Origin: Eledone cirrhosa
Lineage: Eukaryota
Direction of reading: 5' to 3'
Assembly: GCA_964016885.1 (NCBI GenBank)
Contig: OZ024741.1
Span: forward strand, 19,530,001-19,594,000
Length of the DNA stretch: 64,000 nucleotides
The position numbers were made by a program, and so were the translations under genes. The notes beneath the pieces are model-generated. The model was not told the origin of the DNA. It did no database searches and saw only the letters and a program-made list of their open reading frames with translations. Positions 5,704 to 62,662 of this stretch are shown here, one piece after another; position 1 is the stretch's first letter; every line of letters begins with the position of its first letter.

Positions 5704-5978
5704 TAGGAATAACCAAAGAGTGCTTAGAAATACATTGTTTTATTAGCTAATAGTGTTTCATCCATACACCATGGCAGGAATCATCAGAGCCTATAAACAA
5801 GAGTATATCAATAGTTGCATGCTCCATCGAGCTGCGTTCTGGTGACGCAGCTCGATGGAGCATGCAACTATTGATATACTCTTGTTTATAGGCTCTGATG
5901 ATTCCTGCCATGGTGAATGGATGAAACACTATTAGCTAATAAAACAATGTATTTCTAAGCACTCTTTGGTTATTCCTA
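5704..5978. repeat. ~275-bp fold-back palindrome (apex ~5841) carrying a hammerhead-like motif at ~5892-5937
   Basis: Arms are near-perfect reverse complements; gct CTGATGA ttcc..ggat GAAA c..agc. Confidence 0.85.
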
Positions 5979-7832
5979 TAACTATATATATATATATGTA
6001 TGTATACGTATTGCCTATATCAACATAGTGTTATTCAAAGATGGCTGTTAGCCAATAACTGGAATCATAATAGTAAAAGCATGTACGTCTATGTATGTAT
6101 GTATGTATGTATGTATGTATGTATGTATGTATGTATGTATGTATGTATGTATGTATGTATGTATGTATGTATGTATGTATGCATGTATGTATATATGTAT
6201 GTATGTATATATGTATATATGTATATATGCATGCATGTGTGTGTATGTGTGTATGCAGAATTAATCATGCAATTTTCTCTCTCTCTCTCTCACTCACTCT
6301 CTCTCCCTCTCTCTCTCTCTCTCTCTCTCTCTCTCTCTCTCTATATATATATATATATATATATATATATATATATATATATATATATATATATATATAT
6401 ATATATATATGTATATATATATAAAGAGTGAGAAAAAAGGGAGACAGAAAAGGGGAGAGAGAAGGAGAGGGAGGGAAGGAGAGAGAGTGAGAGAGAAAGG
6501 GGGGTGAAAGAGGAAGAGAGAGCGAGGGGGAGAGAGACAGAAGCAGAGAAAGACGGAGTGAAATGAAATGTTTACATAAGCGTCTTAGTTAATGGTTGGT
6601 TGTGAATGGACAGTGAGAGAGACTGAAGTTTAGGGAAGGAGATAATTTCAAGATGTTCATGTCTCTATATTTTGTTTGCCAACGATGTTTATAACATATG
6701 TGATGTTAATGGAAGATACACTAATATTGCATTGAAATAGAAACCTGATCAAACGCTCCCAATATGTATATTTATATTGTACTGCACAACTATACATTAT
6801 TATATACATGTATAATGAACTAATGCGGAACTTACATCTCTTGTATCCTTGCTGTAGATTCACAGTTGTACCTATTAGCATAAACTCTGCTATGTAATTA
6901 GAGATTAGAATTAAAGTCTGGGAACAAAAACGTTTTGTTAGGTTAAACATACAGAAAAATAAAGCAGTATTAGAAAGGACTATAAATGCCATAATCAGAC
7001 TTGTCAACTCTCCCTGTCCGACGGGGAGATCTCTCACCCACTTTGGGGTGGGTGAGAGATGTTTTATCTTGTGAAAATGGGTATAGCTTCCCTGTTTTGG
7101 GACACTTTGTTTCAAGGTACTCCCCGTTGGGGTGTTGGCAGGTCTCCATAATTGAGAGGTAAAAGAGGTGAAGAATAAAGATTACCAGACAAAGGAAAAA
7201 AGACAGGGTGAAGGGAAGAGGGTGACAGACACAATACATAGGTCAGAGCAGTGTTTCGGCTACACCCCGCAGAAAAAATGGCAAAAGTATTTCCGTGGAC
7301 AATAGCCAGTGACTCACACTGCAACAGCCAGCCCACCTTGCGGGTTTCCATCCTCAGATGGGCTGCTATCGACCCGATTTTACAGAGGAGGTCAGCAATT
7401 TGGGGTCTGAGGACGCCTGAGGTCTCGGCGCGACCGGTGAAAAAAGGAGAAACTTGTATCCACCCAATGCCTGATATATATATATATATATATATATATA
7501 TATATATATATATATATATATATATATATATATATATATAAAAAACAAATAACGAAACGAAATTAAATTTCGTTTCGCTTCTAACTCACTTTTGTATGAC
7601 TGACGCTTAAACAATTAAGTTAAAGTGTACATCTACATATGTATACGGAAGTACTAGTATGCATATAAATACACACATGTATACATATGTACATGTACTG
7701 AGTTTTTCACTAGACACTTTACAGTGAGTGTCCAGCTAGTCTGTATGTAACCACACAGACGGACCGGGTTTTAGAGTCATACGAGTTTTCAAGGAAACAC
7801 ATTTCCTCTATTCTCCAGAGAGCCAGACAGGA

Positions 7833-7875
7833 ATATTGGACTAGTTTCGATGTTATTACATCTCATCAGCAATAT
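7833..7875 (-). ncRNA. Minimal type I hammerhead ribozyme (inverted copy)
   Basis: Reverse complement of 8080-8122. Confidence 0.85.
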
Positions 7876-8079
7876 ATACCCATCTTCCGGCTTCTCTAGA
7901 GAATTGTAAAAGCACATATCGTTATATTCTTTTTCTATGAAAATTAGTAGTGGGTAGACTAATTTGCATAGAACGTGAGTCATTGTACGCACCGGTTCTA
8001 CCCACTACTAATTTTCATAGAAAAAGCATATAACGATATGTGTTTTTACAATTCTCTAGAGAAGCCGGAAGATGGGTAT

Positions 8080-8122
8080 ATATTGCTGATGAGATGTAAT
8101 AACATCGAAACTAGTCCAATAT
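8080..8122 (+). ncRNA. Minimal type I hammerhead ribozyme
   Basis: atattg CTGATGA gatg taataa catc GAAA c ta GTC caatat: stem I 6 bp, stem II 4 bp, palindromic ACTAGT stem III, GUC cleavage site. Confidence 0.9.
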
Positions 8123-8549
8123 TCCTGTCTGGCTCTCTGGAGAATAGAGGAAATGTGTTTCCTTGAAAACTCGTATGACTCTAAAACCCGGTCCGTCTGT
8201 GTGGTTACATACAGACTAGCTGGACACTCACTGTAAAGTGTCTAGTGAAAAACACAGTACATGTACATATGTATACATGTGTGTATTTATATGCATACTA
8301 GTACTTCCGTATACATATGTAGATGTACACTTTAACTTAATTGTTTAAGCGTCAGTCATACAAAAGTGAGTTAGAAGCGAAACGAAATTTAATTTCGTTT
8401 CGTTATTTGTTTTTATCGTTTCCGCTGAACCGGTGCGTACAATGACTCACGTTCTATGCAAATTAGTCTACCCACTACTAATTTTCATAGAAAAAGCATA
8501 TAACGATATGTGCTTTTACAATTCTCTAGAGAAGCCGGAAGATGGGTAT

Positions 8550-59626: not shown

Positions 59627-60469
59627 ATATATATATATATATATATATATATATGTGTGTGTGTGTAGTTATCGATGGGGAGTATACTGGTTGGAATAAC
59701 AACAGTGTTGTTTACGTATATGTGTGTGTCTGTATCTGAGTTTGTGTGTTGTAATAGATAGATAGGGAGAGAGAGATAGATAGATATATAGAGATAGATA
59801 GATAGATAGATAGAGAGAGAGAGAGAGAAAGGGAGGGAGAGAGAGAGGGGGTGAGAGAGATAGGTAGATAGATAAGTGTTTAGCCTACCTGTAAACACGT
59901 TGATCGTTGACTAGATCAATAGATCGTATATTGTAAAGGTAATCCGGTCAAAGTTTCTTTCCGAATCACTTGATGTGGTAATGAAGAAGAAAAGAAAGAA
60001 GAGAAAGAAAGGTTAATTAGTGAAAATAAATAAACAAAACAAAGTATAAACAAATAAATGAAACTATTTATATTCAACAGTCGTTTCTAGTTCACATATA
60101 CATATATAGACTTACACATACATACACATACATATATAGACTTACACATACATAGATAGACTTACACACGTATACATACACTCACACATATATAGCCTTA
60201 TATACACATAGACTTACACACACACATACACACACATACATATATATATATAGATAGATAGATAGATAGACTTAGACGCACATACAGTATATATATATAT
60301 ATATATATATAGACTTACACACATATATATGCACTTACACATACTCGTACACACACATCCATACGCACGATGTGTGTGTGTGTGTGTGCAATAAATGTAT
60401 GTATGTGTGTTTATTCACATAAATGTATATAACACATATACATATAATACATACGCACACCTATATATA

Positions 60470-60569
60470 CAGGGTGTCCCCAAAAATGTATTTACACTTC
60501 AACAGCATTCTAATAAATATTACCTATACAGGTAATCAAAGTCTGCATACATTTTTTGAGGACACCCTA
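60470..60569. mobile_element. ~100-bp Tc1/mariner-type MITE
   Basis: TIRs CAGGGTGTCCCCAAAAATGTAT and ATACATTTTTTGAGGACACCCT; preceded by TA. Confidence 0.65.
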
Positions 60570-61359
60570 CATACAATATATGTATATATATATATGCATA
60601 CATACACACACACACACACACACACACATATATATATATATATATATATATATATATATATATATATACACACGTACAGTTTTACAAAAGGTAGAAGCAG
60701 TAAGGAATATATAGAGCCGAGAGTAAATATATTATTTATAGCTGTAAAATTACTTAAACGACAGATCCTTGAATCGCAAGCTTCACAGCTAATAAATAAT
60801 GCTGTTGTTGGTTTAGTCTCTATATATATACTATGGTGTGGCTGTGTGGCTGTATGGCTGCGTGTGGCTGTGTGGCTGTGTGTGGCTGTGTGTGGCTGTG
60901 TGGATGTGTGGGTGTGTAGGTGGGTGGGTGTGTGTTCGTGTATGTAGGCGCCTACATAAGTGTGTCTCTGTATACATTACCAAACTGTGCTAATGGTAGA
61001 TGAGGACTTGCACGGGTGTCGGTACGCAAGCACGCCCGATTGTGTATATATCTGCCTGATATAGAGACAATGAGGGCATTATTTATGTATGTGTGAGTGT
61101 GTGTGTAGTTTTGTATATGTGAGTATGAATGTATCGATAAAAAAAAATGATATATATATAGGAAAAGAGTCAGGACCACAAACAGATCACACCTCGAGCT
61201 GTTCACCGGAGAAACAATTGTAATACGTTAATAAATTGTGTTCCGATGCATCACTGATTCTTCATTTCCATATTATACTCTGCTCTGAAGGAGCATAGAG
61301 TGCTCAACCGACATACCGCCTATGGACGCATCCAAGCAACCTTACTACAAATATATATA

Positions 61360-62268
61360 TACTAGCAGCAGTACCCAGTGTTGCCTGGGTAGTTAAAATA
61401 ATATCTGCTTTGATGAAAAGGTGTTGATCTTAGCGACTGCGAGTTTCTTGAAAATCGGTCGTAAGGCGTAGCAAATGGCGAAATGTTGAGTGAAATCGTA
61501 TGGAATATGTGGGAGGTGGAAGAAGCTAATGATAGGTCGCCGTCCTGAACAAAAAATGCAAAGGTGTGCAATGATAGGTTCTATCGTAGTATAAAAGTTG
61601 AACCAAATAAATTGATTTATGTGTGAGGTGGAGCCGAAGTTTCGAATTTGAACGAAATCGGTTGAAAAATGTGGGAGCTAGAGCCGAAAAGGCGGAAATT
61701 TGAGCGAAAAGGTGATATTTTCGAATATTTAAGCGGCTGCAACGCCGTTCCTGAACAAAAATTCCAAAATTTAAAGCCACTTTAAGACTTGAAATAATCA
61801 GATCTAGCGTAGTGTAAAATTTGAACAAAGTAGGTTGATTAATGTAGGAGCTAGAGCCGAAAAAGTGAAAATTTGAGTCTAAAAGTGGTATTTTTTAATA
61901 TTTAAGCGGCTGCCACGCCGTTCCTGAACAAGAAATGCAAAATATAAAGCCATTACAGGATGTGTAATGATAAATTCTATTTTGCTTTAAAATTTGAACG
62001 AAATCGGTGGCAAAATGTGGGAGCTAGAGCCAAAAATCTTATTTTTCGATATCTAAAAAAAGGTGACGCCCCTATCGATTTTTATCTGCAGAATGACCCC
62101 GGAATAAAAAAAAAAACGATACACTGATATATAGAAAACACTCCCCGATGACTAATCTATGAGCCTGTAAAGTTTCATGAAAATCGGTCGTAAGATGTAG
62201 GCCCCTATAGGTAATACACAGACACACCGACACACACACACATACTTAATTTTATATATATACAGATA
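61360..62268 (+). mobile_element. Non-autonomous Helitron/Helentron (DINE-like) element with internal tandem repeats
   Basis: Starts ACTAG..ACCCAG tgttgc CTGGGT hairpin; repeated AAATCGG..GGAGCTAGAGCC units; ends TTTTATATATATACAGAT. Confidence 0.65.
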
Positions 62269-62280
62269 TATATATATATA

Positions 62281-62662
62281 ACCAAAGATTAATATGGTTC
62301 ATTGATTACTCAATGAATATAGTTTTACAATAGATTAAAATCACTCTACAAAGAAGTTTTATCATATATATTTCGAAGGTACTGTGCTGTTTTTTCAGTA
62401 CGTCCTCGTCAGATAAAATACATTAATTGATGTATGACATACCTCAACGGTCTTGATGGTTCAATTCCAGTACTGGAATTCCAATACTGGAATTCCAATA
62501 CTGGAATTGAACCATCAAGACCATTGAGGTATGTCATACATTTCATGTATTTTATCTGACGAGGACGTACTGAAAAAACGGCACAGTACCTTCGAAATAT
62601 ATATAATAAAACATATATTTTGATTATGTGAATGTCTTCTTTTATTAATATTCTGAATAATA
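62281..62662. mobile_element. Fold-back insert with a hammerhead at 62550-62611
   Basis: 62357-62472 is inverted at ~62499-62611; ttttat CTGACGA ggacgtactg..cagtaccttc GAAA tatataTA ataaaa. Confidence 0.85.

Follow-up and report, generated by a model that had tools for sequence, protein, structure and literature searches.

The closest described counterparts of the palindromes in the DNA analysed here (a 64,000-nt stretch of the 3.0-Gb Eledone cirrhosa genome, positions 19,530,001-19,594,000 of OZ024741.1, 37% G+C and rich in (TA)n; hereafter the window) are insertions of Penelope-like elements (PLEs) with inverted pseudo-long terminal repeats (pLTRs). Passages of PMC3846280 report an inverted 5'-truncated copy at the 5' end, a one-sided tail, partial tandems and palindromes at the joint in Pen2a_Av and others, and passages of PMC8557442 give a general scheme of inverted pLTR insertion, define the Hydra clade with its (TA)n target, and name the formation of the inverted ends as an open question; the initial annotation of the window had already pointed to inverted pLTRs with a tail extension as described for Penelope. 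Parts of PMC11167929 report that a PLE protein, once purified, cuts both strands and extends them from two neighbouring starts bounding the tail, with uncut hammerhead RNA as template, and that a dimer is predicted. As far as these parts of the three papers go, the layout, the tail, the (TA)n target and the two start sites are already published; what is added here is an unbiased count.

The assembled sequence suggests that the palindromes are quite probably insertions of endonuclease-bearing, mostly Hydra-type PLEs, in which two 5'-truncated arms lie head to head in (TA)n and both nicked target strands primed reverse transcription. In L1, twin priming occurs as a side reaction, uses internal sites that vary, and yields inversion without duplication. 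Both strands of the L1 target prime synthesis on the RNA, the first at its end and the second inside it, and the product is inverted (Ostertag and Kazazian 2001, as given in part of PMC9148063), whereas here the second start is fixed for each family and the overlap of the arms gives palindromes. The inverted 5'-truncated copy, one-sided tail, partial tandems and joint palindromes found in passages of PMC3846280 and PMC8557442 recur in our material; in contrast to those passages, tails measure 34-108 nt (vs. 30-40), the arm without a tail is often the longer one, there are ~84 units per Mb, and the (TA)n target leaves no duplication readable. The literature outside subscription papers yielded no paper that applies twin priming to PLEs or ties PLEs to octopus palindromes.

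Tight palindromes and the (TA)n target

Palindromes were counted in an unbiased sample of 158 evenly spaced 10-kb stretches (1.58 Mb), and extra loci were drawn for three families (30 each), for long copies of family A (12) and for the 54556 family (four, one being the window copy), loci of both kinds being labelled L plus a number; structures in the window were found by masked self-comparison plus reading of the letters. We term an inverted repeat with a spacer of ≤100 nt a tight palindrome, and an inverted repeat bounded by TA on both sides with no inner TA run a unit. A "tailed" arm ends at the distal site; a "tail-less" arm stops 34-108 nt before it, at a proximal site that is fixed for each family. 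The families are labelled A (8863 family), B (11292), T (20393) and C (10979/42131), and each arm was classed by comparison with one reference copy per family, four families being used. PLE origin is supported for A, B, T and C because their arms join reverse transcriptase (RT)/GIY-YIG open reading frames (ORFs).

Among the 151 tight inverted repeats of the sample, 117 adjoined (TA)n (random placement: mean 9, maximum 20) and 95 had the unit layout, 86 with a one-sided extension of at least 25 nt; the layout was also present in 65 of 95 with arms of at least 50 nt at 85% identity or more. For the first 1 Mb, an end lay within 12 nt of (TA)n in 122 of 235 inverted repeats (random placement: mean 11, maximum 22). 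With all spacers admitted, 132 units were found among 396 inverted repeats, the latter including redundant matches inside tandem arrays. This density of 0.84 per 10 kb (bootstrap 0.66-1.03) extrapolates to ~250,000 units in the genome (about 200,000-310,000), with paired arms making up 2.6% of bases; PLE protein matches cover 2.7% of the sampled DNA. TA-bounded inverted repeats are denser in the window (15, or 234 per Mb) than in the sample (84 per Mb). The 132 units fell into 44 clusters with tight tail lengths (e.g., 80, 90, 60, 65, 54, and 39 nt), and a one-sided extension of at least 25 nt was seen in 116 and none in 16; one three-member cluster was without a tail. A complete type I hammerhead motif was present in 43 of the 132 (shuffles: 0.8), and predicted hammerheads faced outward in 60 cases vs. 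6.

These results support the view that tight long palindromes in the sampled DNA arise mainly by PLE-type insertion, in line with the initial annotation, which had proposed PLE integration as a major source. Neither of the two outcomes that it had set beforehand as refuting occurred, the palindromes being enriched for hammerheads (43/132) and tail lengths being tight for each cluster and each window family. Its wording that a hammerhead is usually present was too strong: the motif is enriched, but is complete only in those 43 units, many copies being cut.

It is very improbable that the hairpins are DNA transposons of the miniature inverted-repeat transposable element (MITE) type, or fixed palindromic short interspersed elements, moving as a unit and targeting TA. 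Such elements would share the TA target, the high copy number and the one joint that recurs among the top family-T hits, and the 16 units without extension and the three-member tail-less cluster may include a minority of that kind. Instead of symmetric inverted repeats around a fixed interior, however, we found one-sided tails (116/132), joints and lengths that differ among copies, subfamily variants common to both arms, outward-facing hammerheads (60 vs. 6), and arms that run in sense into RT/GIY-YIG ORFs, and for A, B, T, and C the explanation is largely refuted. Perfect palindromes are also a familiar, recognised artefact of assembly and library preparation. Fold-back chimeras of this sort are the least credible source of all, with family-fixed ends across chromosomes, arms diverged by 2-5%, and non-palindromic members in the same families standing against them.

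At L133:3562-9499 lies a palindrome of two Hydra-type PLE arms of 2,969 bp each at 98.9% identity, with a 162-nt one-sided extension.

Two fixed ends and the pairing of arms

Tail lengths in the window were 87 nt in A, 86-90 in B, 78-80 in T, 57 in C, ~108 in 5704, ~70 in 7541, ~66 in 24081, 46 in 40038, 41 in 23177, 35 in both 35510 and 54556, and 34 in 19635, and relatives of 5704, 23177, 35510, 40038, 54556 and 62281 showed two discrete 3' ends in each case. At the proximal end, an in-phase TA match of 3-8 nt was present in 7 of the nine resolved families and one of 1-2 nt in the other two (12 families tried; chance level: 3-19% of positions), and at the distal end the match was 3 nt in family A, with no clear match in family B. 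A TA match helps the start but does not choose the site, because the longer alternating AT runs that two of the tails contain (8 nt in A, 10 nt in B) are mostly skipped: 26 family-A arms of the random set end at -87 to -92 and 2 at the AT run at -50. The initial annotation had described a shorter arm that stops at an internal AT-alternating motif merging into the target. The TA match in 7 of 9 families agrees with this, but the skipped runs do not, and the arm in question, the tail-less one, is often the longer. A small hairpin just behind the start matched by pattern in 3 of the nine resolved families (B, B2, and T) and appeared in A by folding; the pattern search gave no evident hairpin in C, 23177, 40038, 54556 or 7541. 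Separately, arms starting at other internal sites (-920 and -405 in B, -1014 in A) occur in L040, L049, L202, L226, and L238 as classical inversions without duplication, the -1014 start of A recurring together with a short 3' untranslated region (UTR) variant.

Of 69 head-to-head pairs in the random sample, 47 combined a tailed with a tail-less arm, 1 combined two tailed arms, none combined two tail-less arms, and 21 were unclassed (an arm ending elsewhere, at the locus edge, or in an unrelated repeat); ten "other+other" pairs were dropped, most of them representing an unrelated repeat with a match within the reference copy of family A. The excess of mixed pairs (47 of 48 classifiable; p = 2e-13 vs. 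free choice at 0.5), with like-with-like pairs nearly absent, says that the two start choices are coupled, for which a single RNA with two handles would be the simplest explanation. Within the 47 mixed pairs, the tail-less arm extended further 5' by 10 nt or more in 23 and the tailed arm did so in 5, while 19 pairs were level (p = 0.0009); at a 20-nt margin, the numbers were 13 and 4. Search-anchored loci, which are not an unbiased set, gave 45 vs. 4 of 70, and in the window the tail-less arm is the longer at 8863, 10979, 23779, 37241, 40357 and 42131. The arms did not overlap at all in 9 of 47 pairs; young copies can lack overlap, as in L186, where both arms are 100% identical to the reference. 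Each arm contained sequence absent from its partner in 23 of the 47 pairs, and in these, later deletion aside, neither arm can be a copy of the other. Joints varied from copy to copy; they overlapped by at least 3 nt in 40% of 65 (vs. 26% of 587 simulated) and carried extra bases in 23% (vs. 5%), which would fit end-joining. Arms differed from each other by 2.3-4.8% and from other copies by 3.9-9.5%, which shows a shared source or conversion and is not proof of one molecule.

The route that we propose would begin with the GIY-YIG endonuclease nicking both strands of (TA)n. One 3' end would start at the distal site and so produce the tail; the other would start at the proximal site, in most cases with the aid of a TA match of 3-5 nt and possibly of a small RNA hairpin. 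Synthesis of both cDNAs would end prematurely, frequently in or close to the hammerhead, and the two would then be joined by end-joining repair. A palindrome would form only where the two copied intervals overlap, and therefore hairpins, ORF-flanking inverted repeats and non-palindromic "tail plus body" copies would be products of one process. As to the template, we lean slightly towards one RNA copied twice, rather than two RNAs on an asymmetric enzyme pair. The same layout elements are seen with Poseidon_Ac in vitro in parts of PMC11167929 (two starts bounding the tail, use of both strands, and an AT-rich target), but there the start is non-homologous to the cut DNA and strands do not differ, whereas here most proximal starts have a TA match of 3-5 nt and the two ends nearly always use different starts; those parts of the paper offer no explanation of the inverted layout.

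The counts favour two primed strands over fold-back or self-priming, in which one cDNA or antisense template folds and is copied into the second arm, with unequal arms arising by later central deletion, and they make sharp predictions for the in vitro PLE system (PMC11167929). Fold-back, which we consider unlikely, was proposed in passages of PMC3846280 from palindromes at inverted joints, and microhomology deletions of Penelope copies are reported there as well. It would suit the 19 of 47 pairs that are level within 10 nt, the apices in natural stems, the greater likeness of arms to each other than to other copies, the slightly older look of unequal family-T pairs, and the fact that host DNA does fold back at TA runs here. 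However, fold-back from the tailed arm predicts that this arm reaches at least as far as the tail-less one, and the opposite was observed (23 vs. 5). It is further opposed by young copies without any overlap (L186), needs deletions of 0.8-1.6 kb at 8863, 37241, 40357 and 42131, and leaves unexplained the fixed end of the second arm, with longer AT runs skipped, and likewise the solo tail-less copies that end there.

Several points weigh against copying from two primed strands. Unequal arms would also result if a fold-back palindrome later lost its central part by deletion, and age, judged by divergence, does not settle this: family-T pairs with the longer tail-less arm are slightly more diverged (88.3% vs. 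91.6%, p = 0.08) and such family-A pairs less so (97.4% vs. 92.3%, n = 4 each, p = 0.06), neither difference being significant. Microhomology at the joints exceeds simulation by a modest margin only. Family T supplies 30 of the 47 pairs, the pair in L204 enters the count twice, and 21 of the 69 pairs found no class. A bias in reach does not by itself require one RNA, and all of this evidence is drawn from assembled sequence. Furthermore, no ORF link was found for 5704, 7541, 23177, 24081, 35510, 40038 or 54556 in the window and sampled loci (with three extra loci for 54556 and none for 23177 and 35510).

Passages of PMC5625713 report that octopus is exceptional in its hyper-editing and in its share of loci able to form long near-perfect double-stranded RNA (dsRNA), leave octopus out of the repeat analysis, and report heavy editing of lizard Penelope. 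A tentative and rather doubtful extension of the two-strand reading is that twin priming is the normal, programmed PLE route, an enzyme pair gripping one RNA at two start sites, and that the resulting quarter million or so self-complementary inserts (2.6% of bases) are the main source of the dsRNA behind octopus hyper-editing. For an octopod genome, PLE insertions would be a named, countable candidate for that dsRNA. The roles suggested in the initial annotation, with the hairpins as potential dsRNA, as substrates of adenosine deaminases acting on RNA or of small-RNA pathways, or as cruciform-prone sites, are plausible. No A-to-G strand bias between arms was seen in TA-flanked repeats from the window and the first 1 Mb (G-T 155 vs. 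A-C 181 mismatches, with no single skewed hairpin), a result that is silent on transcript editing.

Families in the window

Every structure named in the initial annotation was present, at or a few bases from its given place, and the continuum described there within families A and B was confirmed; its list of cases lacked six family-T hairpins and others (7541, 10979, and 24081). Family A ranges from an ORF-flanking pair (8863-10620) through a pure hairpin (36862-37100) to a solo tailed piece (34798-34911). In the first, the tailed arm (8863-9029, minus strand, 167 nt) consists of an 87-nt tail and a predicted hammerhead with the core variant CAGAAGA (C3 at 9018), and the tail-less arm (9026-10620, plus strand, ~1.6 kb) of the ORF end, 3' UTR, and a predicted hammerhead with C3 at 10554; the 73 nt common to both are 100% identical. 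Both arms of the pure hairpin stop at -161, just upstream of the hammerhead, and the solo piece (minus strand, 114 nt) is without a partner arm. In six of the 12 long family-A loci the pLTR and tail run straight into the ORF start, forming the partial tandem that is characteristic of PLEs. Genome searches with the tails of A and T gave no matches, a result that carries no weight. Three apparent tailed+tailed pairs in this family were rejected as tandem read-throughs. Among 30 family-A loci found via the endonuclease, the ORF-bearing arm was tail-less in 17, tailed in 9, other in 3, and unseen in 1.

The ORF end at 9026-9598 (linker plus GIY-YIG endonuclease) is Hydra-type and 97% identical to full-length copies of a young family (69,890 protein candidates; full ORFs of ~713 aa). 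The 713-aa ORFs in L249 and L252-L255 combine YRDD with a GIY-YIG-type end in a single ORF, the endonuclease being C-terminal. A Pfam search of L252 gave nothing and one of the ORF at 44549 a weak GIY-YIG match only, a PDB sequence search found no relative, and a search for protein homologues returned two unnamed proteins; Atlas neighbours at 0.96-0.97 carry PF00078 or PF01541. When translations were compared with the definitions in PMC8557442, family A had DKT, CxCX5C, and CxxC plus CxH near the endonuclease end, and CCHH was absent; these features, the hammerhead and the (TA)n target are also those of the Hydra clade in passages of that paper. The clade is described there with an N-terminal RWK motif and as "generally under 3 kb", whereas families A and B have RWR, and family A is ~3.2 kb long, has a very high copy number and a variant ribozyme core, and is assigned by motifs. 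Unlike Naiad/Chlamys elements, with an N-terminal endonuclease and no canonical hammerhead, the elements here have a C-terminal endonuclease and hammerheads.

Family B comprises a hairpin at 11292-11535 (arms at 11300-11433, a tail of ~86-90 nt on the right arm to 11535, apex inside hammerhead stem II) and larger relatives. At 37241-39742, the tailed arm (37241-38140, minus) is followed by a tail-less arm (38141-39740, plus) that begins at the endonuclease end, is 785 nt longer and has a hammerhead C3 at 39642; the inverted repeat (37330-39740) is 811 bp at 96.4%, and its 785-nt spacer opens with the last endonuclease codons. No palindrome exists at 40357-42071, where a tail-less arm of ~1.67 kb (minus; hammerhead C3 at 40463, endonuclease end near 42030-41755) is joined to ~48 nt of tail end (plus). 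A diverged relative at 62281-62660 (72-76% like family B DNA) is a hairpin with two hammerhead cores (C3 at 62412, minus, and 62556, plus), whose tailed arm differs from its partner beyond the ribozyme. Family B reads through into an ORF similar to that of family A (L034).

The family-T hairpin at 20393-20613 has a 78-80 nt tail and its apex in hammerhead stem II, with further copies at 23779-24052, 34972-35164, 39779-39966, 55365-55548 and 59440-59625; the parent is a Hydra-type PLE, the endonuclease end lying upstream in L187. A link of family T to a C-type ORF in L012 was rejected as chance adjacency. Family C includes a unit at 10979-11280, with a tailed arm of ~70 nt (minus) and a longer tail-less arm (plus) that hardly overlap, and a copy without palindrome at 42131-43337, in which a tail-less arm of 1.17 kb (minus), carrying a CCHH-type GIY-YIG ORF end (42545-43303), is joined to a 36-nt tail end (plus). 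Family C does not show the combination of absent CCHH and a CxCX5C linker that marks the Hydra clade. Two further ORF-linked copies are a 5'-truncated Hydra-type PLE at 16842-19190 (plus; RT end and broken endonuclease, 36-50% to family A), which ends in (TA)n, and a one-armed Hydra-type end at 44584-46913 (plus) that has a (TA)n run on either side and an endonuclease ORF reaching 45385 (40% to family A). Beside the 5' joint of the former lie two small family-A ends, and the joint (16728-16861) carries 90- and 42-nt copies (97-100%) of 15602-15708, 1.1 kb upstream. Families B and T and the copies at 16842 and 44584 match family A at 32-54%. The initial description of ~10 unrelated families therefore needs correction: 62281 is a relative of B, and a link to Hydra-type ORFs is common to A, B, T, 16842, and 44584.

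Seven families without an ORF link are candidate PLE families, assigned by layout and by hammerhead-like cores in the copy or its relatives. The two-armed unit at 5588-5988 (the 5704 family; tailed arm 5588-5842, minus; tail-less arm 5845-5988, plus; tail ~108 nt) has a hammerhead core with a degenerate stem III, and that at 7541-8815 belongs to a tandem retrozyme-like family (unit ~470 nt, tail ~70 nt, three HH9-like hammerheads). A near-perfect hairpin at 23177-23736 (256-bp arms at 99%, tail 41 nt) represents a young family (at least 1805 candidates) with a minimal hammerhead-like core. Short hairpins lie at 24081-24224 (tail ~66 nt; hammerhead core in relatives) and 40038-40195 (tail 46 nt), the latter cut before the hammerhead-like core of its relatives L149 and L120. 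The two-armed unit at 35510-35877 has an inner hairpin (35607-35676), a 35-nt tail and a variant hammerhead-like core, and the hairpin at 54557-54953 (the 54556 family, at least 2765 candidates; tail 35 nt, arms 87% alike) has a hammerhead-like core with U3-A8 in its relative L264 that is degenerate in the window copy. The copies at 7541-8815 (~470 nt) and 19635-20343 (~610 nt) are tandem retrozyme-like units of the same two-start layout for which no ORF link was found. A TA-bounded family at 35245-35456 (59 matches in sample and window) contains an AT-rich tract, and its 3' end resembles that of the 7541 family.

A hammerhead is predicted in the pLTR, sense to the ORF. Two descriptors gave 11 and 10 hammerhead motifs in the window (0-1 in shuffles). 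Rfam found no hammerhead there at gathering score; with the E limit relaxed to 10, only HH9 matches appeared, which were weak, lay at 7816-8609 and stood among chance miRNA hits; core variants and long loops escape Rfam and standard descriptors. Core variants were noted in T, 35510, 40038, 54556, 16842 and A (the cores of 23177, 35510, 40038 and 54556 being read by eye), U3-A8 being shared by five families, while position 4 is A in family A and position 13 is C in 35510, and the stem II loop of family T is ~45 nt. Passages of PMC4209133 describe minimal PLE hammerheads, including a U3-A8 core, and passages of 10.64898/2026.07.22.740005 describe non-LTR retrozymes. Shared with these are type I, a short palindromic helix III, U3-A8, opposite-strand pairs 100-700 bp apart, and tandem units (cf. 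7541), whereas in our material the cut falls at or within the ribozyme in the majority of copies, and position 4 of the family A core is A. Many copies are truncated within the hammerhead or ahead of it; short ones are often cut at it, in stem II for T and 11292 and just upstream for A.

Host-DNA palindromes and other repeats

A second class of palindrome copies local DNA. At 19212-19634, a 181-nt perfect inverted copy of single-copy host DNA surrounds (TA)30 and is joined to the 5' end of the repeat at 19635-20343, and at 26954-27788 a 354-nt inverted copy (99%) of local DNA surrounds an AT/CA microsatellite, its nearest other genome copies being ~72% alike. Further members are 47049-47138 and 36439-36805 in the window, and L073, L190, L204, and L211; the copy in L204 duplicates an entire family-T hairpin. 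Seven TA-centred cases occur in the 1.58-Mb sample. On the strength of these examples, one might suppose that most palindromes are TA-run fold-backs of neighbouring DNA, PLE ends being caught by position, but this we find hardly tenable. Such fold-backs have TA at their centre; in the 132 units, by contrast, TA lies at the outer limits and the joint is not TA. The fold-backs number 7 vs. 132 and lack a fixed tail, so that the geometry refutes them as the main source and they remain a minor class. In two cases, 19634 and L190, a second-class copy meets a repeat arm at the arm's 5' end, and some of these palindromes may be by-products of the same insertions.

Among the other repeats of the window, 521-3422 and 47985-53405 are young non-LTR retrotransposons (RVT_1, zf-RVT) that are 99% identical and lie in opposite orientation, 45 kb apart. 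Both end in (ATCT)n-type repeats, one has an internal deletion, and they resemble Tx1 elements. Tandem arrays occupy 21916-22423, 32557-33462, and 4307-5047 (15-bp, 56-bp, and short degenerate units).

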